A DNA stretch of 32,000 bases from Candidatus Electrothrix sp. GW3-4. GTDB lineage: Bacteria > Desulfobacterota > Desulfobulbia > Desulfobulbales > Desulfobulbaceae. A program made the translations under genes and the position numbers. Under the pieces are notes generated by a model. The model searched no databases and was not told where the DNA came from. It worked only from the letters and a program-made list of their open reading frames with translations. Shown one piece after another: positions 12,952 to 32,000 of the stretch; the first letter of the stretch is position 1, and every line of letters starts with the position of its first letter. Where the stretch lies: contig NZ_CP147990.1 of assembly GCF_037902255.1 (NCBI RefSeq), positions 3,870,001 to 3,902,000 of the forward strand. Direction: 5' to 3'.

Positions 12952-12970
12952 GAGAAAAGAGGGCTGTCGA

Positions 12971-15193
12971 CTATCTGCTTGAATCCAAAAGCTGCCGGTT
13001 TGCCGTTACCAGGCGTTCGGCAATGACTCGCAGCATCAGATTCTGGATAGATTCAGCCAAGAGAGGTTCTTCTCGTTGAATGGCCTGCATAGAACTTTTT
13101 GTGAGTCGGTACACAACAGTATTCTTGTCAGCAACAATCGTTGCTGTCCGGGGAATATTGAGGCAATACCCCACTTCACCGACCATCGTGCCGATACAGA
13201 TTGTTTGCAGACGAACCGGATGCTGGTTACCGGTCTGAAGATAGATTGAAATCTGCCCTGATTCAACGAAATACAGCGAATCTGAGGCCTCTCCCTGCCG
13301 TACCAGGAGTTCTTTTGCATTGAGGGTGGACTTTTGCAGATAGGATTTCAACAGGCGTATCTGTTCCCTTTGAAAACCTTTTGCAAGCAGTTGCAAGGGT
13401 AAGGCAAGACTTTCCTGCGCCCCCCCGCTGTGGGGTTCCAGCAAGGCATCTTCACACCAAGACAGGGCCCTGTCCAGGTCCGAAGCAAATCTCAGGGACT
13501 TTTCGTTCGGTCGAATCCCATTATACACCATCTGTTGCTTTAACTGGGGCGATAACGAGCTCAGTATAACTGTAAAACCGAATGAATCAGCGAGATACAG
13601 AATACGGGTGAAACAGAAGGCAGCCGAAGAATCCACCCCTGTCACCCGCCGAAAATCGATAATCAGGTACTGTAGAGGGAGCGTTGCTCGGAGCCGGGAT
13701 TGCAGTTCACTGAGAATAGCATTGGCGGTGCCAAAAAAAATAAATCCATGCAGTTCAAGAACGTGGGTGTGCCACCCCAGCCTGACCAATTGCTTACGCT
13801 CGCGTGACGAACGCAAGACATTGCTGGTGAGCTCTGCGCCAGAGAGTTTACGGTAAAAGATATCTGTCCGGCTATAGCTGATCACAAAGGTAAACATCAT
13901 AACGACAAAGCCCAGGACGATGCCGGTCATAAAGTTTGTCACCATGATCGTCAAGCCGATAATGGTAATCATCCCATAATCAACCAGTGGAAGCGCACTC
14001 CATTTCTTTATCAGCCAATTATAGAGGAAGGTGATCCCCTGAAAGACGAGCAGGCCACCTAACACCGCTTTGGGAACGAAAAAGAGCAGAGGCCGTCCAA
14101 AGAAGAGGATCACCAGGGGCATTATCCCGGCAATAAGACCTAAGGTCCGTGTTCGGGCCACGGTCATGTCTCGCCCCAATGAGGTGGTCCCTAACGAATG
14201 AAAGCCTATCATACCACCAGCCAATGCCGACAGAATATTGGTTTTACCTGCGGCCTCAAGTTCATGGTTCAGGTCCATATCTTTCCGCTCGCTCATCTCG
14301 ATCCCACTGAGGTTCAACAAAAGGCTGATTGGAGTAATAATGAGAACCGCGCCGATATTGTCCAGCTGCCCTTGGAGTATATCCCAGCGGGCAGAGAAGA
14401 AATGTTTTGGATTAATAAAAGGCCAGCCAGATGCTAAATCCATATCTCCGAGCAGCAGCCCGGCATCAGCCGCATTTTGGATATTGCTGTCACTAGCAAT
14501 CAACAAGAGATAAAAGAGTATTGCCTCGGCAAGGAGCAGGCCTGGCAAGGCTAAACTATGTTGGATGCGCCGGGTACCGATAAAGAGGAGAAGGCCAAAC
14601 AGGACACCGGGGAGCCAGAGTTCCATCTCGCTGCCAGTGAATAATCTCACCAAATTTTTTGCGCTGAGATTATAGTCCACCATGGTTCCTATGCCACCAA
14701 GGAGCAGCATAATGCCGGTACCGGCCATAAAACCACCAATGACAGGATAGGGGAGATAGCGCACCAGGATGCCCAATTTAAACTTTCCCAACAGGATCAG
14801 AATCACCCCATTAAGGAGCGTTGTCAGGGCGATGAGAACAAAAATCGTAGACATAGCCGCATCTGGCGTGGTCAGGGTGGCTGTGATGGCAGAGATCGAT
14901 GTTGCCATAACAACCAGAGGACTATCCTGCAGGCCAGCTATCACCCCTCTGTTCCCCGAAAAAAAACTCACACTGAGGGCAGTGACCGATACCGTAACCA
15001 AGGCCATAACGATCCCTCTCGGGAGCTCTGCGGCCAGCGGACCAACAAAAATAAGGCTGGTGAGTGAGACAGAAAAAATACTCAGGAGGGTGCCGAGAAG
15101 TACGCCTGCCGTGATTGTTGATAACCAAGCCGGGGACTGCGTTCGAATACCGACTCTTTCGGTTTTTGTTTCTTTTAATGGTACCGATGGCAT
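12971..15193 (-). CDS. SulP/SLC26 family anion transporter fused to STAS and cyclic-nucleotide-binding (CAP_ED) domains
   Basis: 740-aa ORF. Roughly the first 450 aa are polytopic membrane sequence with SulP character. A STAS-like region follows (LELHGFIFFGTANAIL...YLIIDFRRVTGVDSSAA). The C-terminal cNMP-binding fold is LVRQGEASDSLYFVESGQISIYL...GTMVGEVGYCLNIPRTATIVA. Confidence 0.85.
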   Translation of the reverse strand: MPSVPLKETKTERVGIRTQSPAWLSTITAGVLLGTLLSIFSVSLTSLIFVGPLAAELPRGIVMALVTVSVTALSVSFFSGNRGVIAGLQDSPLVVMATSISAITATLTTPDAAMSTIFVLIALTTLLNGVILILLGKFKLGILVRYLPYPVIGGFMAGTGIMLLLGGIGTMVDYNLSAKNLVRLFTGSEMELWLPGVLFGLLLFIGTRRIQHSLALPGLLLAEAILFYLLLIASDSNIQNAADAGLLLGDMDLASGWPFINPKHFFSARWDILQGQLDNIGAVLIITPISLLLNLSGIEMSERKDMDLNHELEAAGKTNILSALAGGMIGFHSLGTTSLGRDMTVARTRTLGLIAGIMPLVILFFGRPLLFFVPKAVLGGLLVFQGITFLYNWLIKKWSALPLVDYGMITIIGLTIMVTNFMTGIVLGFVVMMFTFVISYSRTDIFYRKLSGAELTSNVLRSSRERKQLVRLGWHTHVLELHGFIFFGTANAILSELQSRLRATLPLQYLIIDFRRVTGVDSSAAFCFTRILYLADSFGFTVILSSLSPQLKQQMVYNGIRPNEKSLRFASDLDRALSWCEDALLEPHSGGAQESLALPLQLLAKGFQREQIRLLKSYLQKSTLNAKELLVRQGEASDSLYFVESGQISIYLQTGNQHPVRLQTICIGTMVGEVGYCLNIPRTATIVADKNTVVYRLTKSSMQAIQREEPLLAESIQNLMLRVIAERLVTANRQLLDSSR

Positions 15194-15361
15194 AGTATTT
15201 TAATAGATCCTGCTGCAACTGTTAGTGAGTCTCTGCGGCAGGACATTCAGGACAGCTGCGGTGAATGTTGCGGCGCTCTCTGGGGGGAGGGTCAGGAAAA
15301 AAATTTGCTCGTTCTTTGCTGGCAATGCCTGCCTAACAAAAAAATCCTATAGAGAGCCTTT

Positions 15362-16384
15362 TCAGTTTGATGTAGTAGAAATTTTTTTGCGCAAAAGATT
15401 TTTTACTGAAGTCGTGTCGTCAGGACTCTCCTGCCGGGCCTTTTTCAGATCTTGAATAGCGTCGGAGACACATTTGTATTGTTCCCAGCCCGCGAGCTTG
15501 GCGTCCAGATCAACATGCTCCCATTTCGCATGTCCGTTTTTCTTCAACCACCCTTCATTTTTATAGATAATCCGTGCAACCTCTCCGACATCTTTACAAT
15601 TCTGGTGATTTTCGTCATAATTATAGCTCATGAGAACAGCCTTTACCGCAAAGGTATTGATGGGCTCTTTTTGCCAGTTATATGTTCCGGCAGGAATGAT
15701 GGACGGCACATAATGCTCAGCGATACGTTGGTTTGTTATGGAGAGAAGGTGAAGATTTTCGGTGTAGATACCTGAAAAAAGACTTACAGGGTATCCAGAA
15801 ATATAAATCATCGCGTCAATAACCTCTGAGCGAAGCAGCATGAGGGCTTTCTTAGGATCCCCATACTTTGTTTCACGTGGAGTAACGCCTGCGACTTCAA
15901 AAAGAAGAGAAGCGGTCAGCGCTGTACCACTCCCTTCGGAGCCGATGGCAACGATTTTTCCTTCCAAGTCAGCAAAGGACTTGATAGAACGAGAGGCCAA
16001 GATATGGACCTCTTCATTGTACAGCGGAAAAATCATTTTGATCTGCTTGGCTATCTTATTCAGCTCACTATCACCGGAAGAGTGAATAGAGGCCAAAACA
16101 TCAGACTGAACAATACCCATCTGAAGATCTTTGCGTTCATAAACATCCGCAATATTATCTAAGGAGCCATTGGAAGGGTAAACATTCAGATAGATGCCCT
16201 CCTGCTTAACCAACCTGGAGATATCGTATCCGATTTGGATATACGTTCCCTTTGTCCCCCCAGTGACAATACCCATCTCAGTTGCTGCGAATGTCGGAGA
16301 GACCAGAGAAACAACATAGACAAAAAAGGCGACAGGAGCTAAGAACGTATATGATCGTAATGAGTTCATGTGTTTTTGCACCAT
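15362..16384 (-). CDS. TAXI-family TRAP-type solute-binding protein (periplasmic), with no membrane partner in the window
   Basis: 340-aa ORF with a signal peptide (FLAPVAFFVYVVSLVSPTFAA). TAXI hallmarks are present: IVTGGTKGTYIQIGYDISRLV, NGSLDNIADV, LQMGIVQSDV, LYNEEVHILASRSIKSFADLEGKIVAIGSEGSGT. The start may be Met6 (16369). Confidence 0.8.
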   Translation of the reverse strand: MVQKHMNSLRSYTFLAPVAFFVYVVSLVSPTFAATEMGIVTGGTKGTYIQIGYDISRLVKQEGIYLNVYPSNGSLDNIADVYERKDLQMGIVQSDVLASIHSSGDSELNKIAKQIKMIFPLYNEEVHILASRSIKSFADLEGKIVAIGSEGSGTALTASLLFEVAGVTPRETKYGDPKKALMLLRSEVIDAMIYISGYPVSLFSGIYTENLHLLSITNQRIAEHYVPSIIPAGTYNWQKEPINTFAVKAVLMSYNYDENHQNCKDVGEVARIIYKNEGWLKKNGHAKWEHVDLDAKLAGWEQYKCVSDAIQDLKKARQESPDDTTSVKNLLRKKISTTSN

Positions 16385-16697
16385 TAAAATAGTTTTTTCG
16401 TCAGATACGAGGTACTGACGTGCAATCTGGAATTACCTGCTGGAAGAACATAGGACGCCAACTTGGCAAGAATACGTGATGCTACCCGTTATAGCTAGTT
16501 TAACCAACTGTCGTTATAAGTCAATAAAATAACGTGCCATGTCAAAAAAAAGAACGCATAAAATCGCCTCTCTCTTACAGGAAAGCATTACCTTTATGTG
16601 GTACATATTTTTTATACATTACAAAGCAGGATATGTCTATTTTTCTTTCTCTCTAATCGTTCGTTAGCAATGAGCCGCAGTGTGCACCACAACGGCC

Positions 16698-18176
16698 TCA
16701 GTCTTCTAATAATTGGTAAATTATCGGCATCTGTTCACGAATCCTTTGCAATGTCAGGGCATCAATTGTTCCGCCAGTCATGGGAATGCGCCTGACATAT
16801 TCCTGCAACCTTCCGGGAACTCTCCCGTACTTGTACGAATAAGGGAATTTCCCCGTATTATCGATGACGTTATTCCTGTTGTCAGGGTTAGGCACACTGA
16901 TATATAGTTCACTTTCCGAAAGTTTGTTACCTGTTGCAAACAACTGTTTTTCCCTTATGTACTTATACAGCTCAACAGCTGTATTTTGCGCAGGATCAAT
17001 CAGCGTTATATCTTCCTCCATATAGGGTTTATACCTGTATTCCCCATCCGCTGATCGATATTGATACAGTTCATCAAGAATCTGATGGATCTCCTGTTCC
17101 AGGTAAGGATAATGGGTGCATCCTAAAATCAGTACCTTCAATTTATTCTGCGTGTTGGAAGCGGAAGCTCTCACTTTCTCCAGCAGAGAAACAAGATGAA
17201 ATCGCATATAATTAACAGGATCATTGATCTGCATTGCAGAGCAGTCTGACGCATCATTGCTGCCACAGAGCATCTTCGAGTCGGAGAAATCAAAGTGATA
17301 CATGTCCAGCAGCGACGTTCTGATCCCATCTTCTGCTTCCGCAGCAGGCCCCTTGTAGTTTTGGTTCCAACCGACAGCGTGAGCATCATAGTAATCTTTA
17401 TCTCCATCGATAGCTTCGGCGATGCCCGTTCCTCCCTGCGCAACAACTTCTATCTCGGCGTCTACCTGTTCCTCCTTGGCTATTTCCCTGAGAGCCTTTT
17501 CATATCCGCCTGAGCTCACAGTCCCTGCTGTTGCCAGTAAGCCTATTATTCCCCCATCAGCATTTGTAAAATGCTCCAGGGCTGCCCTTGCTCCTGCATC
17601 AATGACACCGATGACCTTGATGTTCAATCCTGTCTTGTCCATCAATAACTTAATCTTTTCCGTACCGTATGCCGTGGCGGTATTGCAGGCTATAACGATT
17701 GATTTTACAGGCAGTTTATCAGCTTTATAGGTGGTGGACTGTGCATCGGGGTAGTACCTGTTTGAGAGCAGGAACTGCACATCTTTGATAATATGTTCTT
17801 CCAGCAGAACATCCTTGCTCTCTTTATGGTAATTCCCATAGGGCATATTGGCGAGATCGCCGAGATATATAAATTTTTCCCCTTCAAAGTCGTTTGCATG
17901 ATCGCCCCCGACAGTGTGGTGGATATTGTCAAACTCATCAAGATTGATAATGGAGTTAAAGACAGTCAACCCCCCTGTCCCGGAGTCGAAGATACCTATA
18001 GGTAATTTTTCTCTCTTTTTCGGATAATGTTCAACATCTATATAGAAGTAGTTATCCTTTTGGGCCAGCATGATCTGAATAATATCTTCAATGGGTTTAT
18101 TCCCTGTTCGGACATGAACAGGAACGCATCCAAGAAAGGCTGACAAAAAAAGAAGGAGCAATATTTTGTAGAGCAT
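16698..18176 (-). CDS. Asp/Glu racemase superfamily protein, MurI (glutamate racemase)-like, with signal peptide/probable lipobox and large insertions
   Basis: 492-aa ORF carrying all four MurI signature blocks in order: IGIFDSGTGGLTV (res 60-72), YLGDLANMPYG (104-114), IACNTATA (Cys164) and LGCTHYP (Cys353). The N-terminus MLYKILLLLFLSAFLGC looks like a signal peptide with a lipobox-like FLGC (Cys17). Confidence 0.75.
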   Translation of the reverse strand: MLYKILLLLFLSAFLGCVPVHVRTGNKPIEDIIQIMLAQKDNYFYIDVEHYPKKREKLPIGIFDSGTGGLTVFNSIINLDEFDNIHHTVGGDHANDFEGEKFIYLGDLANMPYGNYHKESKDVLLEEHIIKDVQFLLSNRYYPDAQSTTYKADKLPVKSIVIACNTATAYGTEKIKLLMDKTGLNIKVIGVIDAGARAALEHFTNADGGIIGLLATAGTVSSGGYEKALREIAKEEQVDAEIEVVAQGGTGIAEAIDGDKDYYDAHAVGWNQNYKGPAAEAEDGIRTSLLDMYHFDFSDSKMLCGSNDASDCSAMQINDPVNYMRFHLVSLLEKVRASASNTQNKLKVLILGCTHYPYLEQEIHQILDELYQYRSADGEYRYKPYMEEDITLIDPAQNTAVELYKYIREKQLFATGNKLSESELYISVPNPDNRNNVIDNTGKFPYSYKYGRVPGRLQEYVRRIPMTGGTIDALTLQRIREQMPIIYQLLED

Positions 18177-18403
18177 AGCAACGGTGTCAGAAGTTTTATT
18201 TGACGTGGTTCTGTAACCAACAGCTTCAGGGACAGACCACAGGTGACAAAAATCAACACATGCGGGAGTTTTTTCCGCCCGCAGCCAGATGACAAGTTTT
18301 GCTTTCCTTGTTTTCCAGCCTCAGCACTCTCTCTTGCTTTGATATAGTAAACCTGACAGCATCAGTCCAGATTATTTTGAGAAAATTTCCTTCCTTCCTC
18401 CCT

Positions 18404-20413
18404 TCAAAGATCTCCCTGAAGCCCTTTCAGCACCACATCGACCTCTTTTTTAAACTGAGCCTGCTGCGAAGCTGTCAGACCATTCTTGCCGAATCGCTCC
18501 TGATAGTACAGGTGTAGGCAGAACTGGAGGCTATCAAAGGGCATCTCCAGAGAGGCTGCTGTCTGCATACGGCGAATCCAGCTGAGTGGGGGCTCCCATG
18601 GGTTTCGTTCAAAGCCCAGCTCGTGGAGGCGCTGCTCAATTCGGTCAAACGGGGAATTATGATGCTGCCCCTGTTCCGTTTGTTTACTGGTATCCATTCG
18701 CACTCGTCGAATCCTCTTCCCTGCCTGGAGTCTTCTGGCAAGGATGATCACCAGCGGAACAAGAAGGAGCCACCACCATTTTTTTACTATGCCCTCCTCT
18801 GTGCCCCAGCGCCATTGAGCAAATTTAAAGAGCATCAATGACCAGAGATCTTGAAAAAAAAGCAGGCTGGATGAAGCTGCTGCATCTTCTTCCTCGACCC
18901 AGGAAGAAGAAGTGGTATCCAGATTATGCCATAGACCATCCTGGTATACCAGGGTCCAGGCATGGGCATGGCGACTCCGAATAACAATCTGATCGCCCAA
19001 CCTGCTCGGTTCATGGGCGGACCAGCCCGTTGCATAGCGAGCCGGAATGCCGCAGGCCCGGAGAATAAGGACCGTCGCTGTAGCAAAGTATTCGCAATAA
19101 CCGCTACGGGAGGAGAGCAAAAAGGATGCTAAAGAGGTTCTCCCCTGTTCAGCAGCACGCAGTTTTAGAGAATACCTGAACTGGTTCTGGAAAAAATCAG
19201 CAAGCACTTGAATAACGTCTTCGGGCGTTTTTGCTTGAAGATCCAGCTCATCAATAACTTGCTGGATCGCTGGTAACTCTTCCTGAGGAACGATGAGGTC
19301 TTTTTCTGTTGGGGCCAAGTCCTTGGACGCAGCCTCATTATACTGCACCTGATAGCCGATCAGGCCGGGACCGTCTTCAACTTGAACGGCCCCCAGAGGC
19401 GTCTGTTTCAAGAGTAATACAGGAAGATTGGCTAATTGATAGGTCCCCAGAGGTAAGGTAAGCATCCCTTTCTCATGCTCCAATGGACTCCACACCGTCA
19501 ATGAGCTACCGCTTCCCGGATCATCGTGCAGGTTCCAGGTCGTTTGGTCTTGCTCAGAGGTGACATTGGCGAACTGCGCAGGTGAGGCGTGCCAGCTTGT
19601 ACCGCGATACAGGTTATAGCTTGATTCCCGCAACAGGACGGGACGAAACGGATTATCACCAGGTGTCACCCGGAACATGATCTGATTAGAGAGCTTGAGT
19701 TCCCCGAGATCACCTATTGCTGTGGTTCGTTTAAAGGGATCGCTGTTTCTGGCCAGCCACCAATGACTGACCATCCGCATGGCCATCCTTTGGAGATGGT
19801 AGACCCCGAAATGACCAGCATAGCCTGCTCCTGCTATAAGGGCAAAAAGGAAGATCCACAAAAACGGGGAAAAACGCCTGGAGCGCTGCGGCCAAAGGGC
19901 CCAGGCGGTAAAGAGGAGTAAGCCGATAAAAAAGCTCCCGTCTTTCATATTACCTGTCCCGGCTGCCAGCAGGCATAGGGCGGCATAGGGAGGGGCTATA
20001 TCTATGGTTCTCGGCTGGTTATCTACTGCCACCACTCTGTTACGGGCAAACAGCAGCAGGGACCTCAGGTCGATCTTACTGGCAATGCTGTACTGCTGGG
20101 CAGCAAGGAGAGGGAAGCAGATGGCGGGCAACCATTTAAGGAGCTTCAACGCCGCCTTGAGGAAATCGGTTGTAAAAAGAAAAAGGGCCAAGCCAGCCAA
20201 CAGGATGGTGCAGATGTCCGTGATCCGATTGAAATCAGCTAGAGAAAGCGCCCATTTGCTTTTGATGTATCTCGAGCCTTCAAGAAACAGAGCCATAGGA
20301 AGCGCTAAGGAGAGAAGGCCGGTCTGCCAGCCCCAGAAGAGGAGGATTACACCAGCAAAGAAGGGTGGAAGCGACATAAGGCTATTGGTTTTCTTCAGAT
20401 GATCCTGCATCAC
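18404..20413 (-). CDS. Transglutaminase-like (TgpA-type) polytopic membrane protein
   Basis: 669-aa ORF with a multi-TM N-terminal region. The periplasmic or cytoplasmic domain carries a transglutaminase/cysteine-protease core (SGYCEYFATATVLILRACGIPARYATGW...HAWTLVY). A further TM helix and a C-terminal tail follow. Confidence 0.85.
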   Translation of the reverse strand: MMQDHLKKTNSLMSLPPFFAGVILLFWGWQTGLLSLALPMALFLEGSRYIKSKWALSLADFNRITDICTILLAGLALFLFTTDFLKAALKLLKWLPAICFPLLAAQQYSIASKIDLRSLLLFARNRVVAVDNQPRTIDIAPPYAALCLLAAGTGNMKDGSFFIGLLLFTAWALWPQRSRRFSPFLWIFLFALIAGAGYAGHFGVYHLQRMAMRMVSHWWLARNSDPFKRTTAIGDLGELKLSNQIMFRVTPGDNPFRPVLLRESSYNLYRGTSWHASPAQFANVTSEQDQTTWNLHDDPGSGSSLTVWSPLEHEKGMLTLPLGTYQLANLPVLLLKQTPLGAVQVEDGPGLIGYQVQYNEAASKDLAPTEKDLIVPQEELPAIQQVIDELDLQAKTPEDVIQVLADFFQNQFRYSLKLRAAEQGRTSLASFLLSSRSGYCEYFATATVLILRACGIPARYATGWSAHEPSRLGDQIVIRSRHAHAWTLVYQDGLWHNLDTTSSSWVEEEDAAASSSLLFFQDLWSLMLFKFAQWRWGTEEGIVKKWWWLLLVPLVIILARRLQAGKRIRRVRMDTSKQTEQGQHHNSPFDRIEQRLHELGFERNPWEPPLSWIRRMQTAASLEMPFDSLQFCLHLYYQERFGKNGLTASQQAQFKKEVDVVLKGLQGDL

Positions 20414-20609
20414 TCTTTTGTTGTTTGATCTCGTTAAGATTACTTCGGATCAACTCAAATCATGGGTTTGCAGCCTGTTTCAAGGAGAGCTAGAGCCAGC
20501 CTTTGCTTCCCTGCAAAGAGGGTATGATTGATCCAGAGCAGATACTGAGAAGAGAGGCTCGAACGTAGATTCGAGATAAAGTCGAACCTCGCTACAAGAC
20601 AGAACAAGC

Positions 20610-21956
20610 TCACAAGCCCGTCACCCCTTCTTCCATCTTATCCGCAGCCAACACATGAAAATTCTCCGGCTCATCTTGCATCGGACCCGCACCTCCCACC
20701 GCCTCCACCTGCTCCGTGACCACAATAACCTTCAGCGGTACGCCCACCCCTCGCAGCATCCTGACCATCTCCTGCCGCTCTTTATCCCAGGCAAGCAGGA
20801 TACAGATACACCCACTGACCCGCGAGGCATGGCTGGTCAACAGAGAAGATAATTCAGAAAAGGGTCTGTCATGACAGGGCTGGACGCAGGCCAGGACCTC
20901 CATCATGCTGTCCGTATGGGACACCCCCCGACCTGAGGAAAAACAATAGGCCCTATTGCCAACAAACATCAGGTCCAGCAGGGATTCCTGGGTCTCCACC
21001 GTACTGACAAAGGAGGCAGCCAGCGAGACCGCCTCTTCAAAGGTCTGGCTATAGGCCTGCTCCTGAAAGGTATCCAGCACCAGACCATGGCGGACAAAGA
21101 ACTCATCCTGATAATTCTTCACGATCAACCTGCCAGTCTTGGCCCAACTCTTCCAGTGAATCCGGCGCAGAGGATCGCCGGATCGGTAATCCCGCAGGGA
21201 GACAAATTCATCCGAGTTACCCACGGACGAGGCCAGGGCAACCCCACCAGGCTGGTGACGGCGCGAACCGGGAAGATCCACCTCCGGTAATCGATAGCGC
21301 TTGGGCAACACCAGGACCCGCTGGTAGCAAGGGAAAAAACGACAGCCCTTAAAGAGACCAAAGGGATCGGGCCGGGACAAGATGATACCGGTCAGTTCCA
21401 GGTAGCCCCGATGTAAGGGGAGAATTTCGACCCGAACCTGTTCTCTGCCATGAGGCGGAAGGTTCGGCAGGGCTTGTTCCTTGCCCTTGGCCTGCCGATG
21501 CTGAGCAACCAACCACATCCAGCGATAGACCATCGTCCACCTGTCCCAGGCATTTCGACTCTCTTCTTCCGGTTCCCGGGTCTGGAGAAATTCGTCATAT
21601 GTGGGACGGGGATCGCCAAATTGTTCGGAGAGAAAAAGCCCTCTCTGCTGTCTTGCCGAATGATTATAAAGCCAAAGGGCATAGGTCAGGGGCTCCCCTG
21701 CCAGGGCAAACTTCGGTAACCTTCGCTGAACAGTGATGCGAACCCGGAAAAAGAGACTGAAAAGGAGGGCAACCAAGAGTAAGGGCACAGCAAGGGCAAA
21801 AACCTGATAGACCGTGCTGCGCCAGGGATTCATCCCCAGGGCAGAAGAAATGACGAGGACAGTCAGCACCAGCAGCCCTGCCGGGGTAAAGCGCTGTTTT
21901 CGCCAGCTGCTTATCCCGTCAAAAAGCCTGTAGGAGAGGTAGAAAAAATATCGCAT
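20610..21956 (-). CDS. DUF58 domain-containing protein (MoxR-associated)
   Basis: 448-aa ORF with two N-terminal TM helices and the DUF58 signature (GNSDEFVSLRDYRSGDPLRRIHWKSWAKTGRLIVKNYQDE). It begins 12 nt after the MoxR gene. Confidence 0.85.
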   Translation of the reverse strand: MRYFFYLSYRLFDGISSWRKQRFTPAGLLVLTVLVISSALGMNPWRSTVYQVFALAVPLLLVALLFSLFFRVRITVQRRLPKFALAGEPLTYALWLYNHSARQQRGLFLSEQFGDPRPTYDEFLQTREPEEESRNAWDRWTMVYRWMWLVAQHRQAKGKEQALPNLPPHGREQVRVEILPLHRGYLELTGIILSRPDPFGLFKGCRFFPCYQRVLVLPKRYRLPEVDLPGSRRHQPGGVALASSVGNSDEFVSLRDYRSGDPLRRIHWKSWAKTGRLIVKNYQDEFFVRHGLVLDTFQEQAYSQTFEEAVSLAASFVSTVETQESLLDLMFVGNRAYCFSSGRGVSHTDSMMEVLACVQPCHDRPFSELSSLLTSHASRVSGCICILLAWDKERQEMVRMLRGVGVPLKVIVVTEQVEAVGGAGPMQDEPENFHVLAADKMEEGVTGL

Positions 21957-21968
21957 ACGACCTGCCTG

Positions 21969-22913
21969 CTATGCGGGAACCGGGACCGTTTCCACGATTT
22001 CTTCAACAATTCCCTGGGCAGTCTGGCCGGAAAAGCGGGCCTGGGGATCAAGCACGAGCCGGTGGGCGATCACCGGGACCGCGATCTCCTGAATATGATC
22101 CGGGGTGACAAAGTCCTGACCGTCGAACAGGGCCAGGGCACGGGCCGTTTGGATCAGGGCAAGAGAGGCCCTGGGACTTGCTCCCAGCACCAGACCGGGA
22201 AAAGAGCGGGTGGCATGGACCAGCTGAACAATATAGTGCTTGAGCTCCTCGCTGATATGGACGGCATGGACCTGCTTTTTGACCCGCAGGATATCCGCTG
22301 CTGTTGCGCAGGCTGAGATATCCTCAATGGGATGCCTGCCTGCCTGATTGGAGAGCACAGCGACCTCGTCTTCCACACTGACATAACCGAGGCTGAACTG
22401 GAGGGCAAAACGATCCATCTGGGCTTCAGGCAGGGGATAGGTACCCCGTGATTCCACCGGGTTCTGGGTGGCAATGACAAAGAAGAGATCTTCAAGCCGG
22501 TAATTGCTCCCATCAATACTCACCTGTTTCTCTGCCATTGCCTCCAGCAGGGCAGACTGGGTACGGGGCGAGGCCCTGTTGATCTCATCTGCCAGCAGGA
22601 TATTGGTAAAGACCGGCCCCCTGTGGAGACGAAACGCCTTGTCCTTGGGATCAAAGATGGACACACCAAGGATATCCGAGGGAAGGAGGTCCGGGGTGAA
22701 CTGGAGGCGGGTGAACTGGGTCTTGATGGAGAGGGCCAGGGTCTTGGCCAGGGTTGTCTTGCCGGTGCCGGGATAATCTTCCAGCAGGATATGTCCTCCT
22801 CCGGCAAAACCGGCCAGCAGGAGGCGGATGGAATCTGCCTGCCCCTTCATGACCTGCCCGATATTGGCTGCAACTCTATGCAGGATTGCAGCTGTGGTCT
22901 TATTGTCCGTCAT
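21969..22913 (-). CDS. MoxR-family AAA+ ATPase
   Basis: 314-aa ORF with Walker A (LLEDYPGTGKTTLAKTLA) and Walker B (ILLADEINRASPRTQSALLEAM). It has the typical MoxR length and C-terminal lid (GASPRASLALIQTARALALFDGQDFVTPDHI). Confidence 0.92.
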   Translation of the reverse strand: MTDNKTTAAILHRVAANIGQVMKGQADSIRLLLAGFAGGGHILLEDYPGTGKTTLAKTLALSIKTQFTRLQFTPDLLPSDILGVSIFDPKDKAFRLHRGPVFTNILLADEINRASPRTQSALLEAMAEKQVSIDGSNYRLEDLFFVIATQNPVESRGTYPLPEAQMDRFALQFSLGYVSVEDEVAVLSNQAGRHPIEDISACATAADILRVKKQVHAVHISEELKHYIVQLVHATRSFPGLVLGASPRASLALIQTARALALFDGQDFVTPDHIQEIAVPVIAHRLVLDPQARFSGQTAQGIVEEIVETVPVPA

Positions 22914-23400
22914 AGTGTTCTATCTTATCTCTGTGCTGTCTCTTTCAGGCTATAGAGAGGACCGCGTCTTGGGATCCCTTTTTCCTTACCAGGGCAAGAA
23001 AAAAACATGTTGGGTTCAAAATGTTGAATATTTCTTCCCTCAGGGACCATGTCGTGTTACTCTCTCTGGAAAAATTATATCATACACTCATCGGTTACGC
23101 TTGTCAGGCCCAAGAAATCGATAAAAAGCGAAATCGATAGCGTCTGTATTGCCAGGAACAGGGTACCAGGCCTTCTTTTTTCAATATTTATGTGCGGCCT
23201 CGCTTTTTCTTTCATGACGCATGAGGGGACGACAGGGAACGTGCCTCCCTAAAATGGATGCCACAGGGTGTCTCTTTTATGAAAACAAAAAATCAGCAAA
23301 AGAACTCTGGACAAAAAATATCGACATGATAAAAATAACATCTTTAACATGTATTGATCTTGTCGTGTACATAGGCTTTTGAGAGCTCACAGGAGAAAGA

Positions 23401-24420
23401 ATGAAGAAATATTCGATCGGCAGCATAACCACTCTGTTGCTCATGCTGTTTGCGATCCCAATAATAGCAGGAACCCTGGATGAAGTACAAAAACGCGGGA
23501 GCTTGGCGTGCGGTGTCTCCACTGGCCTGCCGGGATTTTCCGCAACCGATGAAAAGGGCAACTGGAAAGGCCTGGATGTTGATGGCTGTCGGGCCATTGC
23601 TGCTGCTGTTCTTGGTGATGCAAGCAAGGTGAAGTATGTCGCTCTGAATGCTAAAGAGCGTTTTACCGCCCTCCAGTCTGGAGAGATTGATGTGCTGGTG
23701 CGCGGGACCACCTGGACCAAACATCGTGACACCGCACTCGGTTTAAACTTTGCCGGGGTCAATTATTATGACGGGCAAGGTTTTATGGTGCTCAAGAAGC
23801 TTGGCGTCACATCAGCAAAAGAACTTGACGGCGCGATTTTCTGCATTCATGCCGGAACCACAACTGAGCTGAACTTGGCTGATTATTTCTCCAAAAACGG
23901 CATGGAATACGACGCAATAGTCTTTGATACCCATGATCAGGCTGTCAGAGGATTTGAGGTCGGACGCTGTGACTGCCTGACCTCTGATCAATCGCAACTC
24001 TATGCCCTGCGCACCCAGCTGAGTAAGCCGTATAGTGCTGTCATTTTGAATGAGGTTATCTCCAAGGAGCCCTTGGGCCCGGTTGTCCGTCAAGGGGATG
24101 ATGCCTGGTTTAATGTGGTGCGCTGGTCTTTTTTCGCCATGCTCAACGCCGAAGAATTGCGGGTGACATCCGCCAATGTCGACGCAATGAGGAGAACCTC
24201 TGTTAATCCTGCTGTTCGCCGTCTTCTGGGCCTGGATGGTGATAAGGGCCAGAGCCTGGGGCTGCCGGACGACTGGAGTTACCAGATCATCAAACAGATC
24301 GGCAATTACTCCGAAGTCTTTGAACGCAATGTGGGTAAAGGCTCTGCCTTAAGGATCAAACGCGGACTGAACGCCTTATGGAAGGACGGGGGCATCCAGT
24401 TTGCTCCACCCATGCGCTGA
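23401..24420 (+). CDS. aapJ: General L-amino-acid ABC transporter, periplasmic substrate-binding protein (AapJ/BztA family)
   Basis: 339-aa ORF with AGGAG 5 nt upstream and a signal peptide (TLLLMLFAIPIIAG). Family-3 SBP motifs are present (LACGVSTGLPGFS, GEIDVLVRGTTWT, NYYDGQGFMV). It is followed by two long permeases and an ATPase in the Aap/Bzt order. Confidence 0.85.
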   Translation: MKKYSIGSITTLLLMLFAIPIIAGTLDEVQKRGSLACGVSTGLPGFSATDEKGNWKGLDVDGCRAIAAAVLGDASKVKYVALNAKERFTALQSGEIDVLVRGTTWTKHRDTALGLNFAGVNYYDGQGFMVLKKLGVTSAKELDGAIFCIHAGTTTELNLADYFSKNGMEYDAIVFDTHDQAVRGFEVGRCDCLTSDQSQLYALRTQLSKPYSAVILNEVISKEPLGPVVRQGDDAWFNVVRWSFFAMLNAEELRVTSANVDAMRRTSVNPAVRRLLGLDGDKGQSLGLPDDWSYQIIKQIGNYSEVFERNVGKGSALRIKRGLNALWKDGGIQFAPPMR

Positions 24421-28561: not shown

Positions 28562-28564
28562 CGC

Positions 28565-30250
28565 CTAAGCCCTGGTTAAGCTCCGATAGCGGATCCGATG
28601 GGGTTGATCTGCCTCTGCGCCCATCCGCTTTTTATAGTCCTGCTCGTATTCTGAGTAATTGCCCTCAAACCAGACCACCTTGGAATCGCCCTCAAAGGCC
28701 ATGATATGGGTGGCAAGCCGATCCAGGAACCAGCGGTCATGGCTGATGATCACCGCGCAACCGCCGTAGCTCTCCAGGGCTTCTTCCAGGGCCCGCAAGG
28801 TATTCACATCCAGGTCATTGGTGGGCTCATCAAGCAGGAGTACGTTGCCGCCCTCTTTGAGCATCATGGCCAGATGGACCCGATTCCGCTGGCCACCGGA
28901 GATCTCTGAGACCTTATTCTGCTGGGCAGAGCCGCTGAAGTTAAATTTGCCCACATAGGCCCGGGCGTTGACCTCCTGGGTACCGAGCCAAATCGTCTCC
29001 TGGCCCTCAGAGATGGTCTCGTAGATGGTTTTGTTGGGATCAAGGTTATCACGGCCCTGATCCACATAGCAGAGCTTGACCGTCTCACCTATGCGGATGC
29101 TGCCCTCATCCGGCTCTTCCTGGCCGGTGATCATGCGAAAGAGAGTGGTCTTACCTGCGCCGTTGGGACCGACAATCCCGACGATGCCGCCCGGTGGCAG
29201 GGAAAAGGAAAGGTCCTCCACCAGGATCCGATCGCCATAGCTCTTGCTGATCCCCTCCCCCTCAATGACCACCTTGCCCAAACGGGGACCAGGTGGGATG
29301 TAGATCTCCAGCTTTTTCATCCGCTCAGAGGAGTCCTGGTTGAGGAGCTGCTCATATTGGTTGATACGGGCCTTGGCCTTGGCATGGCGGCCCTTGGGAC
29401 TCATGCGAATCCACTCCAGCTCCCGTTGCAGGGTCCGCTGGCGCTCGCTCTCCTTTTTCTCTTCCAGGGCCAGGCGCTTCTGTTTCTGCTCCAGCCAGGA
29501 GGAATAGTTACCCTTCCAGGGGATACCCCGTCCCCGATCAAGCTCCAGGATCCAACCAGCCACGTTATCCAGAAAATAACGATCATGGGTGACCGCGATG
29601 ACCGTGCCCTCGTAGCGCTGGAGATGATGCTCCAGCCAGGCCACGGACTCGGCATCCAGATGGTTGGTGGGCTCATCCAGGAGGAGGATATCCGGCTTCT
29701 TGAGGAGGATGCGACAGAGGGCCACCCGGCGTTTCTCACCCCCGGAGAGCACCCCGATCTTGGCCTCAGCAGGAGGACAGCGCAGGGCATCCATGGCCAT
29801 CTCCAGACGGCTGTCCAGATTCCAGGCATCAGCGGCATCCAGCTGATCCTGGACCTCGCCCTGGCGTTCAATCAGGGCCTGCATGGCATCGTCGTCCATG
29901 GGTTCGGCAAATCGGGCATTGATCTGGTTATACTCTTCCAGCAGATCAACAACGCCCTGGACGCCCTGCTCGACAATATCACGCACGGTCTTATCTGGAT
30001 CAAGCTCAGGCTCCTGCTCCAGCATGTCCACAGTAAAGCCCTCGGAGAGAAGGCTCTCGCCCTCAAAGTCCTTATCCTTGCCCGCCAGGATACGGAGCAA
30101 GGTACTCTTTCCTGAGCCGTTCAGGCCCAGCACCCCGATCTTGGCGCCGTAGAAATAGGAGAGGGAGATATCTTTAATAATAACTTGATCTTTGTACTTT
30201 TTACTGACCTTAATCATCGAATAGATGATCTTATTCGCTTCTTGTGCCAT
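28565..30250 (-). CDS. ettA: Energy-dependent translational throttle protein EttA (ABC-F ATPase)
   Basis: 561-aa ORF that appears collinear with E. coli EttA as I recall it (MAQ...ISLSYFYGAKIGVLGLNGSGKSTLLRILAGKDKDFEGE). It has two ABC cassettes: LSGGEKRRVALCRILL/ILLLDEPTNHLD and ISGGQRNRVHLAMML/VLLLDEPTNDLD. An arm/linker region lies between them. Confidence 0.95.
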   Translation of the reverse strand: MAQEANKIIYSMIKVSKKYKDQVIIKDISLSYFYGAKIGVLGLNGSGKSTLLRILAGKDKDFEGESLLSEGFTVDMLEQEPELDPDKTVRDIVEQGVQGVVDLLEEYNQINARFAEPMDDDAMQALIERQGEVQDQLDAADAWNLDSRLEMAMDALRCPPAEAKIGVLSGGEKRRVALCRILLKKPDILLLDEPTNHLDAESVAWLEHHLQRYEGTVIAVTHDRYFLDNVAGWILELDRGRGIPWKGNYSSWLEQKQKRLALEEKKESERQRTLQRELEWIRMSPKGRHAKAKARINQYEQLLNQDSSERMKKLEIYIPPGPRLGKVVIEGEGISKSYGDRILVEDLSFSLPPGGIVGIVGPNGAGKTTLFRMITGQEEPDEGSIRIGETVKLCYVDQGRDNLDPNKTIYETISEGQETIWLGTQEVNARAYVGKFNFSGSAQQNKVSEISGGQRNRVHLAMMLKEGGNVLLLDEPTNDLDVNTLRALEEALESYGGCAVIISHDRWFLDRLATHIMAFEGDSKVVWFEGNYSEYEQDYKKRMGAEADQPHRIRYRSLTRA

Positions 30251-30596
30251 ATGCTCCGTTCTGTATTGAATGAGGGTATTGACCGCCTTGGGTCGCTCGA
30301 ACTTGTTGTGCTCGTCCGGCTGGAACCAAGCGGCTGGAAGATTTGTTCAGCGTTACTATCTGTTCATAAACTGTATCTTGTTTTTTTGCGAAGGATTTCT
30401 GCATGAATTTTGGGGGATATCCTTTGTTGTGGGATAGCACAGATCGCTGGCATTCATTGCTTGAATTTTCTAAGGACATGCGATAGATAAAGAGTTTTAG
30501 CTATCGTTTCAACCAGTTTTCCCTCTCGTTCGGAGCCTTATCGCAGAGACATTTGATACGTTTTGCCTGTAACTTCCGAGAAAAGCAATGCTTTTT

Positions 30597-31118
30597 GTTT
30601 GCAAATAAAAGGTTGTTTGTTATCAAGAGAAGGTTATTAGTAACAAACAAGGAGTTGTTTGTAGCTAACAGAAGGTTGTTTGTAATAAATAAGGAGTTGT
30701 TTGTAGCTAACAGAAGGTTGTTGATAACCAACGAAGGAGTGTTTGTTAACAAGAGAAGGTTGTTTGTAACAAACAAGGAGCTGTTTGCTATAAACAGAAG
30801 GTGTTTGATAACCAACGAAGGAGTGTTTGCTCCTAGCAAAAGATTGTTTGCTACCAACAAAAGGTTGTTGTTAATCAACGAAGGAGTGTTTGCTATCAAC
30901 GGAAGGTGTTTGATAACCAACGAAGGAGTGTTTGCTATCAACGAAAGGTGTTTGATAACCAACGAGGGAATGTTTGCTCATGACAGAAGGTTGTCAGCTA
31001 TTAACAAAAGGTTCTTGGTAGCCAACAAGGGGTTGTTTACTCCTGATAGAAAGCTCTCAGCTATCAAGAAGAATATTTTGTTTAACAGCAAGAATCTATT
31101 GTTTGTCCGTAAAGGTGT
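30597..31118. repeat. Tandem array of about 25 copies of a 21-bp unit (approximate consensus GTTTGyTAnCAACrrAAGGrkT) with 42-bp higher-order repeats
   Basis: Units were read off by eye: 30615-30635, 30636-30656, 30657-30677 and so on, to degenerate copies near 31118. An identical 30-nt block (ggagttgtttgtagctaacagaaggttgtt) occurs at 30651-30680 and 30693-30722, an offset of 42. gtttgataaccaacgaaggagtgtttgct recurs at 30803 and 30908. Copies decay toward the right end. Confidence 0.9.
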
Positions 31119-31208
31119 GTTACTGAGTAAACACTAGCATAAAAAAACTCCGCTCACTAACAATATTGCACAGAAAAACAATATATTACCAAAGGGGCTT
31201 CGATTTAA

Positions 31209-32000
31209 ATGAATAAGTCTGGTTCAGGGTCAGCAACAAATGCAGGGATAGATTACCAGCAAAGAGTCTCTGCATTATTTCTAATAGCTTTACATTCTCA
31301 GTTCGACATCTCACAATTACTTAACATTAATGACGAATTAAATATTAAGTATGTTTCATACGAGACTGCAGAAAATGTAGATGATCTCAATATTATTTGC
31401 GATGACAACAAAATTTTATACATGCAAATTAAGCGCAAAATTGCGCTTTCCAAAAAAGACGGCTCTGAATTCCAAAAAGTAATTGAACAGTTTCTTTCTC
31501 AATATATCGCTGAACAAAAAATATCTGATCGGTTTCTTCTCATCACTACGTCAGACACATCAAAAAGTATTAAATATGATCTCAAAAAAATTTTTGACAG
31601 TATTAGGCTTAACGATACTGGATTTAAAGCGAACCCTTGCAATAATAACGAAGAAAAAACTTATTCAATCTTAGAAACAGTTTTTAATAACTCATATAAA
31701 AAACTGACCCAACATGAACCATCAAATAAAGATTTTGTTATATTTTGCAAGCAAGTATTCGTGTCTATTATTGATGTAGAAACCGATATGACAACAGAGA
31801 AAATAGCTGTCATGCTTTTGCACAGTGAAGGAATTAATATGCCATCACTGGTTTGGAACTACTTAGTATCCCAGAGTCTATATTATGCAACTAACAGATT
31901 ATCTTTAAACCGTGATGGTATAAATAACACTCTAGCAAAATATCAAGCCAAAAAGCCTACTCAGAAAGAATTGGAAATTCAATTAAATGAACTTTTGAAA
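31209..32000 (+). CDS. Partial ORF (first 264 codons, runs off the window; absent from the supplied ORF track): putative PD-(D/E)xK nuclease-fold protein with a Cap4/DUF4297-like N-terminal domain
   Basis: I translated this by hand. ATG 31209 is preceded by an in-frame TAA (31206-31208), and no stop occurs to position 32000 even though the DNA is about one-third GC. The N-terminus is MNKSGSGSATNAGIDYQQRVSALFLIAL...YETAENVDDLNIICDDNKILYMQIKRK. This matches the G-x-x-YQ...E...DD...Q-x-K pattern I associate with DUF4297/Cap4-type nuclease domains. The family call is from memory only. Confidence 0.55.
   Translation, partial: MNKSGSGSATNAGIDYQQRVSALFLIALHSQFDISQLLNINDELNIKYVSYETAENVDDLNIICDDNKILYMQIKRKIALSKKDGSEFQKVIEQFLSQYIAEQKISDRFLLITTSDTSKSIKYDLKKIFDSIRLNDTGFKANPCNNNEEKTYSILETVFNNSYKKLTQHEPSNKDFVIFCKQVFVSIIDVETDMTTEKIAVMLLHSEGINMPSLVWNYLVSQSLYYATNRLSLNRDGINNTLAKYQAKKPTQKELEIQLNELLK

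Follow-up and report, generated by a model that had tools for sequence, protein, structure and literature searches.

The stretch of DNA analyzed in this work, hereafter the window, comprises 32,000 nucleotides of the 4.64-Mb chromosome of the cable bacterium Candidatus Electrothrix sp. GW3-4 (contig NZ_CP147990.1, positions 3,870,001 to 3,902,000 of the forward strand). The right-hand end of the window holds, from left to right, the native core gene ettA on the minus strand (28565-30250), which encodes the energy-dependent translational throttle ABC-F protein, the upstream region of this gene (30251-30499), an array of short tandem repeats (30596-31094), and the beginning of an AT-rich gene on the plus strand (31209-32000) that runs off the window end. 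This last gene is the subject of the present analysis. An earlier note, made from the letters of the window alone, had taken its start for the probable left edge of a horizontally acquired island, possibly devoted to defense. As detailed below, the part of the gene within the window corresponds to the first 264 codons of a protein predicted to have about 690-705 amino acids and contains the whole of a predicted N-terminal nuclease domain of the Cap4 type; this view rests on the open frame, on the relatives of the protein, on its substitution pattern, and on a structural model.

The reading frame that starts at the ATG at 31209 contains no stop in 264 codons up to the window end, and the other five frames over the same span contain 9 to 32 stops each. 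At the base composition of this open reading frame (ORF), the chance of 264 stop-free codons is 4.6e-10, and the longest open run among 2000 shuffles was 131 codons, in agreement with the opinion expressed in the earlier note that a frame of this length is hardly due to chance. As that note had also presumed, the ORF was absent from the list of ORFs for want of a stop in the window, since the listing skips frames that run off the sequence end. The ORF is a real coding sequence under purifying selection: the ratio of nonsynonymous to synonymous substitution rates (dN/dS) is 0.17 against the copy of Electrothrix marina and 0.10 against the copy on the metagenomic locus L016, and it is 0.08 within the nuclease core.

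The composition of the ORF is atypical for its host. The part between 31209 and 32000 has a G+C fraction (GC) of 0.316 and a GC at third codon positions (GC3) of 0.28, whereas ettA, used as the reference gene, has values of 0.569 and 0.714, respectively. Positions 1-30250 of the window have a GC of 0.51, and the GC3 of four neighboring genes is 0.52-0.68, so that a GC3 of 0.28 stands against 0.52-0.71 in the genes around it. A direct count of the segment 31201-31440 gave 77 G+C in 240 nt, exactly the figure reported previously, and the 36 G+C in 60 nt sampled from ettA at that time are consistent with a median of 35.5 across all 60-nt lines of this gene. The proposal that composition changes right after the repeat array is correct in part only. 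GC does drop further within the ORF, to 0.27-0.37, but it is already about 0.40 from the start of ettA (30250) and amounts to 0.31-0.43 across the intergenic region and the array; the fall is thus two-stepped, and its first step precedes an array that is native.

Evidence for the native state of the array comes from the comparison with other Electrothrix genomes. The EttA protein of the window is that of Ca. Electrothrix sp. GW3-4 (P0219; 100% identity over 561 amino acids) and shares 97% identity with its counterparts in E. aestuarii, E. scaldis, and one further Electrothrix. Homology at the nucleotide level to E. aestuarii and E. scaldis extends from ettA to window position 30499 with about 89% identity (blastn), indicating that the ettA upstream region is kept in these sister species. 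The array is built from a 21-nt unit (TGTTTGnTAnCAAAC(A/G)AAGGAG) repeated about 23 times, in which an imperfect palindrome (TGTTTGnTAnCAAACA) is followed by AAGGAG. In the closest relative, Electrothrix sp. JALAAI01 (L107), homology is unbroken from ettA through the array (window 28564-30929, 86.5% identity), and the array, at positions 591-880 of L107, is followed by a GGDEF-fragment gene. In E. aestuarii, the array (L022 8375-8662) is followed by the gene for a 930-amino-acid TPR protein. Remnants of the array, together with a DDE transposase and unrelated genes, lie beyond ettA in E. scaldis, and both the array and the nuclease gene are missing from the ettA locus of E. communis. Because the array is contiguous with ettA in L107 and is also present in E. 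aestuarii, it is native DNA that lies outside the acquired sequence and forms the final conserved stretch ahead of the foreign gene. The site past the array holds different content in every Electrothrix genome compared. The nuclease gene was not found beside ettA in any of the four genomes compared, namely, E. aestuarii, E. scaldis, E. communis, and JALAAI01, and a tblastn search of the ettA loci of E. aestuarii and E. scaldis revealed no homologue of it. The synteny comparison suggested in the earlier note thus speaks for an accessory rather than a core gene, and the AT-rich gene at the ettA-array site is specific to GW3-4 among the Electrothrix genomes compared.

The foreign DNA itself starts at about 31185, just 5' of the ATG, and not at the array, since the array and the intergenic stretch are conserved in sister species. 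The match to the E. marina copy (L006) begins at 31185, 24 nt 5' of the ATG, and that to the L016 copy begins at 31204 (blastn); the putative left edge of the acquired unit (31185-31208, plus strand) therefore includes the ribosome-binding site AAAGGGG. When E. marina L006 and the unrelated metagenomic locus L016 were compared with each other, only the gene was shared, namely, about 2.1 kb from 17 nt before the ATG to the gene end. In four genomes with a GC of 0.48-0.58, the GC of the nuclease gene is 0.28-0.34, and among the 44 non-redundant loci with enough flanking sequence, the gene has a lower GC than its flanks in 38 (medians of 0.321 and 0.394). The shared gene unit has no associated repeats, whether inverted or direct, and no associated integrase or transposase; no tRNA gene was found in the window, as the earlier note had observed for the side of the ORF; and promoter and terminator scans of 30200-31400 gave nothing over background. 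Taken from these comparisons, the gene appears to be an AT-rich, horizontally acquired one-gene cassette placed right after the native array. The idea of an island edge is thereby retained for the foreign, accessory nature of the DNA; as to its extent, relatives share a single gene of 2.1 kb.

Residues 1-250 of the encoded protein are predicted to form a PD-(D/E)xK nuclease domain of the Cap4/DUF4297 type with an intact predicted active site. An AlphaFold2 model built from the window's own 264 residues had a predicted local distance difference test score (pLDDT) of 90.7 and a predicted template modeling score (pTM) of 0.86. Its first part, residues 1-115 (31209-31553, plus strand, as are all features of the gene given below), corresponds to the nuclease core with an alpha-beta-beta-beta-alpha-beta topology (helix 6-30, strands 46-51, 60-64, and 69-74, helix 87-102, and strand 108-113). 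Next to this core comes a helical subdomain, residues 119-250 approximately (31563-31958), that completes the N-terminal domain and comprises helices 119-141, 146-167, 173-181, 195-206, 212-228, and 235-245, all modeled with a pLDDT above 90. When this model was compared with the PDB using Foldseek, the best 23 matches were all Cap4-type domains, with probabilities of 0.75-1.00 (18 of them at 1.00) and a TMq of 0.33-0.54. The top match was Avs3 (8dgc_A, E=3.5e-6, TMq 0.54), and Cap4 of A. baumannii (6wan, E=1.1e-4), LmuA (9hr5, E=1.3e-4), and HerA-DUF4297 (9c1m, E=3.5e-4) followed; Cap4 of M. osloensis was also among the best 23, in which LmuA is represented by the proteins of Salmonella and Vibrio. 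The next match after the Cap4-type domains was the PD-(D/E)xK repair nuclease NucS (2vld). A model of the full-length E. marina protein (pLDDT 86) left the top three fold matches unchanged.

The residues expected of such a nuclease are conserved in the family, as judged from 67 relatives with 27-69% identity. The first helix carries the motif G13-I-D-Y-Q17-Q18-R19 (31245-31265), the DUF4297 signature of the N-terminal helix, of which G13, Q17, and R19 are kept in 65 relatives. E52 (31362-31364), predicted to be an acidic residue of the active site and placed where the first strand ends, is likewise kept in 65, and D58-D59 (31380-31385), the predicted metal-binding aspartate or aspartates at the start of the second strand, in 66. 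The same number of relatives retain Q73 and K75 of the (E/Q)xK motif Q73-I-K75 on the third strand (31425-31433). E. coli AbpA, which matches the Pfam family PF14130 at 1e-55 (189.5 bits), served as the sequence-level control. An hhalign comparison of a 71-sequence family profile with AbpA had an E-value of 3.9e-4 and aligned the GG..G.(Y/F)Q helix, the glutamate, the DD cluster, and QxK: the first motif was paired with AbpA G14-F-L-F-Q18, E52 with E41, D58-D59 with the D44/D45/D47 cluster, and Q73-I-K75 with Q58-V-K60. In HerA-DUF4297, a catalytic triad of D41, E59, and K61 has been confirmed by mutation in the literature, and its E59-x-K61 occupies the position equivalent to Q73-x-K75. The fold matches, this conservation, and the AbpA alignment all bear out the Cap4/DUF4297-like N-terminus with an E / D / QxK arrangement that the earlier note had read from the translation; a lack of conservation of these residues, which the note would have taken as a refutation, was not observed.

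Among the profile libraries, the only significant match of the window fragment was the PADLOC candidate PDC-M54A, which covers residues 5-243 with E=1e-28 and corresponds to profile positions 2-258 of 1657. NCBIfam gave no match for the fragment or for seven full-length relatives, and PDB sequence-profile searches with the N-domain and with the full length returned noise only. The domain combines a Cap4/DUF4297 fold, as seen in the model, with a sequence that lies outside the Pfam threshold.

An exhaustive profile search with the N-domain identified 1,018 cluster representatives at E<=0.001, of which 141 were at E<=1e-30, and most of the best 150 representatives have a length of 675-810 amino acids. 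The closest relative is E. marina P0155, a protein of 693 amino acids that shares 84% identity over all 264 residues without gaps. Further close relatives have 704 (P0156, 83% identity), 696 (61%), and 702 amino acids (58%). Since the nearest relatives measure 693-704 amino acids, the window protein is most likely about 700 amino acids long, so that the visible frame would correspond to its first 38%. Megablast searches of E. coli genomes and tblastn searches of phage records gave no match. Proteins of 1444-1673 amino acids share the N-domain only. Those of the PDC-M54A type, with about 1,650 amino acids, continue with an nSTAND3-like NTPase, and one N-domain protein of 1,444 amino acids continues with NB-ARC and WD40 parts, showing that the N-domain doubles as an effector module at the head of STAND NTPases. 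In the profile search, proteins of about 690 amino acids had E-values of 1e-113 to 1e-60, and PDC-M54A-type representatives had values of 1e-28 to 1e-34.

In the relatives, residues 270-693 approximately make up a C-terminal half of about 430 amino acids that is well modeled. A search of viral folds in BFVD with it gave nothing at E<=0.001, and a tblastn search of plasmids with this half alone retrieved only the one Agrobacterium protein already known, a result that speaks neither for nor against domain shuffling. The C-terminal half of most members contains a C..C...H..C cluster together with several invariant Arg, Trp, Tyr, and Asp residues. The cluster, at residues 386-419 of P0155, is kept in 63 of 67 family members.

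A separate observation concerns P0004, a stand-alone N-domain of 246 amino acids that ends at a stop codon and is present on five metagenomic contigs (L001-L005). On each of them, it lies directly downstream of a 67-amino-acid HTH_17 (AlpA/excisionase-like) gene. P0004 could be what is left of a truncated member, or else half of a distinct arrangement of two genes.

The genomic context of the family was analyzed at 49 non-redundant loci with 273 neighboring ORFs, covering four genes on either side. Since no neighbor family occurs in more than two of these loci, a family member is a stand-alone gene. Defense or toxin genes were found beside the gene in six of nine loci inspected by hand. One of these loci has a type I restriction-modification (R-M) system, an OLD-type ATPase, nSTAND3, and HipA as neighbors, another a Schlafen-like ATPase, and another a MazE-like gene. 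Hachiman, TcmP, VapBC, and an integrase are near the copy on an Agrobacterium plasmid, and a TIR-RES protein and RhuM are near some copies. In E. marina, the gene that follows the nuclease gene (L006 12148-13446) encodes an ABC-type ATPase of the AAA_21/AAA_15 families, with a full-length match to PDC-M07A (E=5e-201). The association of the family with defense genes is anecdotal and no more than suggestive.

The AAA_21 ATPase of E. marina was considered as a partner of the nuclease and was dropped, as it is not conserved in other loci; an AAA_21 protein near ettA in E. scaldis shares only 27% identity over 184 amino acids with it. The PDC-M07A gene of L006 is a second defense candidate beside the nuclease gene, in that genome only; an ORF of 200 amino acids with no family match follows it. 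The only housekeeping neighbor met twice in the context sample is a tRNA/rRNA U5-methyltransferase gene (L013 8044-9507 and L018 5396-6697), which lies just upstream of the family member in two distant genomes, one of Bacillota and one of Thermodesulfobacteriota; this could reflect chance or a hotspot for insertion.

Cap4-type nucleases recur in bacterial immunity as an "executioner" module, present in CBASS, Avs3, Lamassu, HerA-DUF4297, and AbpAB, and each of these systems has its own partner or domain that determines the moment of nuclease action. Cap4, Avs3, LmuA, and HerA-DUF4297 are held inactive and fire once a sensor or partner assembles the nuclease domains on duplex DNA. The window family resembles Cap4 of CBASS (6vm5, 6vm6, 6wan, and 6wam) in the N-terminal endonuclease fold (Foldseek E of 1e-4 to 1e-3, TMq of about 0.5), in a core of alpha-beta-beta-beta-alpha-beta topology that carries an acidic residue, an aspartate, and (E/Q)xK, and in the layout of an N-terminal effector with a C-terminal regulatory part. 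However, sequence identity is only about 13%, no SAVED or CARF domain is present, 60 relatives having no Pfam match to SAVED or CD-NTase families, and there is no conserved CD-NTase neighbor at the 49 loci. Avs3 (AVAST type 3, 8dgc) is the best fold match, and the N-domain of PDC-M54A is clearly homologous, but these proteins have 1,400-2,000 amino acids with a STAND NTPase and sensor repeats, whereas the window family has about 690 and its relatives have no P-loop domain. LmuA of Lamassu (9hr5, 9nxx, 9ux7, and 9uxl) shares the nuclease fold and is, according to the PDB titles, a tetrameric nuclease effector on duplex DNA. LmuA is paired with the SMC-like LmuB (and LmuC), whereas none of these is conserved here and LmuB is not among the most frequent neighbor families. 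HerA-DUF4297 (9c1m) shares the nuclease fold, and the motifs of AbpA are collinear with those of the window family. Both HerA-DUF4297 and AbpA/AbpB consist, however, of two genes and rely on an ATPase or helicase (HerA or a DEAD-box protein) to activate the nuclease, and AbpA has a HamA C-domain, whereas in the window family the C-terminal half is of another, unannotated kind and a partner is absent. The protein is most likely a stand-alone one of about 700 amino acids, for which no conserved partner was seen at 49 loci, and not a component of the CBASS, Lamassu, or STAND/Avs systems that the earlier note had named as users of the domain.

None of Pfam, NCBIfam, and PADLOC 2.0 has a model dedicated to the architecture of about 690 amino acids, and no literature was found on it or on PDC-M54. 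A new fusion of a nuclease and a C-terminal part is not surprising in kind, because, according to a published survey, DUF4297 nucleases joined to C-terminal domains of varying type are common in immune systems.

On balance, it is probable that this accessory gene of about 700 codons specifies an abortive-infection-type defense made up of a single protein, in which a Cap4-type nuclease is gated by a C-terminal module. The C-terminal 430 residues or so would form a regulatory or sensor module that keeps the nuclease inactive until a trigger, most likely one connected with a phage or some other mobile element, drives oligomerization. DNA would then be degraded indiscriminately, so that one protein would bring about the defense. 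Seen from the side of the protein, the C-terminal half most likely senses the cue and gates the oligomerization-dependent degradation of DNA. A wider proposal can be made only tentatively and is put forward with less than even confidence, namely, that the whole family of about 690 amino acids is a single-protein anti-phage system, spread as an AT-rich one-gene cassette over Thermodesulfobacteriota, Bacteroidota, Bacillota, Campylobacterota, and Alphaproteobacteria, whose C-terminal half is a new sensor that would detect an infection cue directly and activate the nuclease with no need of an NTPase, cyclic nucleotide, or partner. For the locus as such, comparative data make a single-gene defense candidate plausible, and not the edge of a demonstrated multi-gene island.

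A number of observations weigh against a gated defense nuclease. At the level of the nuclease domain, the search with PF14130 (Cap4_nuclease/DUF4297) that the earlier note had recommended gave 12.9 bits and E=0.13 for the window fragment, with a gathering threshold of 26.2, and none of 60 full-length relatives was matched at E<=0.01; the domain call failed this check in Pfam but is rescued by the PADLOC match and the fold results. As to the C-terminal half, no match was found in Pfam (60 members), NCBIfam (seven members), PDB sequences, or Foldseek, and that it acts as a sensor is purely inferred. Furthermore, the C..C...H..C cluster is degenerate (the second Cys to Ser at S389 and the His to Arg at R416) exactly in P0155, P0156, P0006, and P0157, the four Thermodesulfobacteriota proteins closest to the window gene. 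The family members are all annotated as "hypothetical protein", and, as the window carries only 264 codons, the GW3-4 copy could be truncated further on. With respect to context, other copies sit among housekeeping genes such as TsaD and TamB, and the PADLOC families of 135 immediate neighbors, for which there is no control set, have at most three members each and are mostly ABC- or OLD-type ATPases. In the clade of the window protein, the metal site has been either lost or rebuilt. A zinc-finger reading of CxxC...HxxC was considered for the window protein and dropped, the motif being degenerate in its own clade.

The alternative that survives best, although it is unlikely, is that of a constitutively competent restriction-like nuclease, such as a modification-dependent type IV enzyme, whose C-terminal half reads DNA or its modification and which cuts foreign DNA directly, with no suicide of the host. 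Such an enzyme would fit the PD-(D/E)xK core, the single gene with no methyltransferase partner, and the R-M genes beside some copies, and the Cys/His cluster of most members could be a DNA-binding zinc module. However, the cluster is degenerate precisely where the window protein belongs, no similarity to known modification readers or type IV enzymes was found, and the structurally closest proteins are all trigger-activated effectors that depend on oligomerization.

Considerably less probable is a selfish or addictive mobile gene, i.e., a toxin-like or homing-type nuclease that travels as a one-gene cassette and confers no benefit on its host. Nothing but the gene belongs to the shared unit, the gene stays AT-rich in hosts with 48-58% GC, its insertion sites are scattered, and toxin-antitoxin genes lie near some copies, all of which this explanation would accommodate. 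Yet there is no conserved antitoxin-like neighbor, no repeats, integrase, or transposase are tied to the unit, an architecture of 700 amino acids in two parts is unlike homing endonucleases, and the gene is under purifying selection across distant hosts. Slightly less probable again is the possibility that the GW3-4 copy is a decaying remnant that either lacks function or is interrupted past the window end by a truncation or frameshift. Truncated relatives do exist, such as the N-domain of 246 amino acids on five contigs; many database entries have 130-480 amino acids, some of which represent contig ends; and focal ORFs of 388-544 amino acids occur among the 49 loci. The 264 codons show, however, neither a stop nor an indel relative to E. 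marina, their dN/dS is 0.17, and all predicted catalytic residues are intact. Finally, it is very improbable that the ORF is the N-terminal effector of a large NTPase of the STAND/Avs type (PDC-M54A, about 1650 amino acids), as might be thought from PDC-M54A being its sole significant library match, from Avs3 topping the fold matches, and from the N-domain proteins of 1444-1673 amino acids with nSTAND3-like or NB-ARC and WD40 parts, since its closest relatives (84%, 83%, 61%, and 58% identity) have 693-704 amino acids with no NTPase of any kind, the E. marina copy is collinear with it and gapless over 264 residues, and representatives of the PDC-M54A type score far lower than the proteins of about 690 amino acids.

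The single-protein nuclease with a gating C-terminal module would add to the Cap4-type systems a compact version in one protein with an unannotated control domain. If it is a defense system, the C-terminal half would represent a new sensor and the family would belong in defense-annotation tools; if it has no defense role, it would be one more accessory nuclease gene. For cable bacteria, the repeat array close to ettA marks a junction beside a variable region, and the gene described here provides a first candidate immunity gene at the ettA-array site.

Several minor observations were made on the surroundings of the gene. The repeat array has no match in Rfam, as judged from a scan of 30200-31400, and in E. 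aestuarii no gene is called over it. Its period of 21 nt equals two helical turns and would suit phased protein-binding sites. On the other side of ettA, the GW3-4 block from SulP to SBP_bac_3 (window 12958-23735) has a flipped orientation relative to ettA and lies about 5 kb away from it. SulP directly follows ettA in E. aestuarii, E. scaldis, and E. communis, which indicates that GW3-4 has undergone an inversion or rearrangement that broke the sequence at the 3' end of ettA. In L107, ettA is followed by RelB/YafQ and a Hox hydrogenase operon; this arrangement and that of the SulP block suggest that both flanks of ettA are prone to rearrangement in Electrothrix. Finally, the 120 nt that precede the nuclease gene of E. 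marina (L006 9839-9958) are 77% identical to E. aestuarii L022 8150-8265, a segment located between the repeat array and the TPR gene, and the last 45 nt or so of this stretch are shared more weakly with window positions 31133-31175 approximately. The stretch may be a common promoter or 5' leader, or a small repeated element of Electrothrix genomes.

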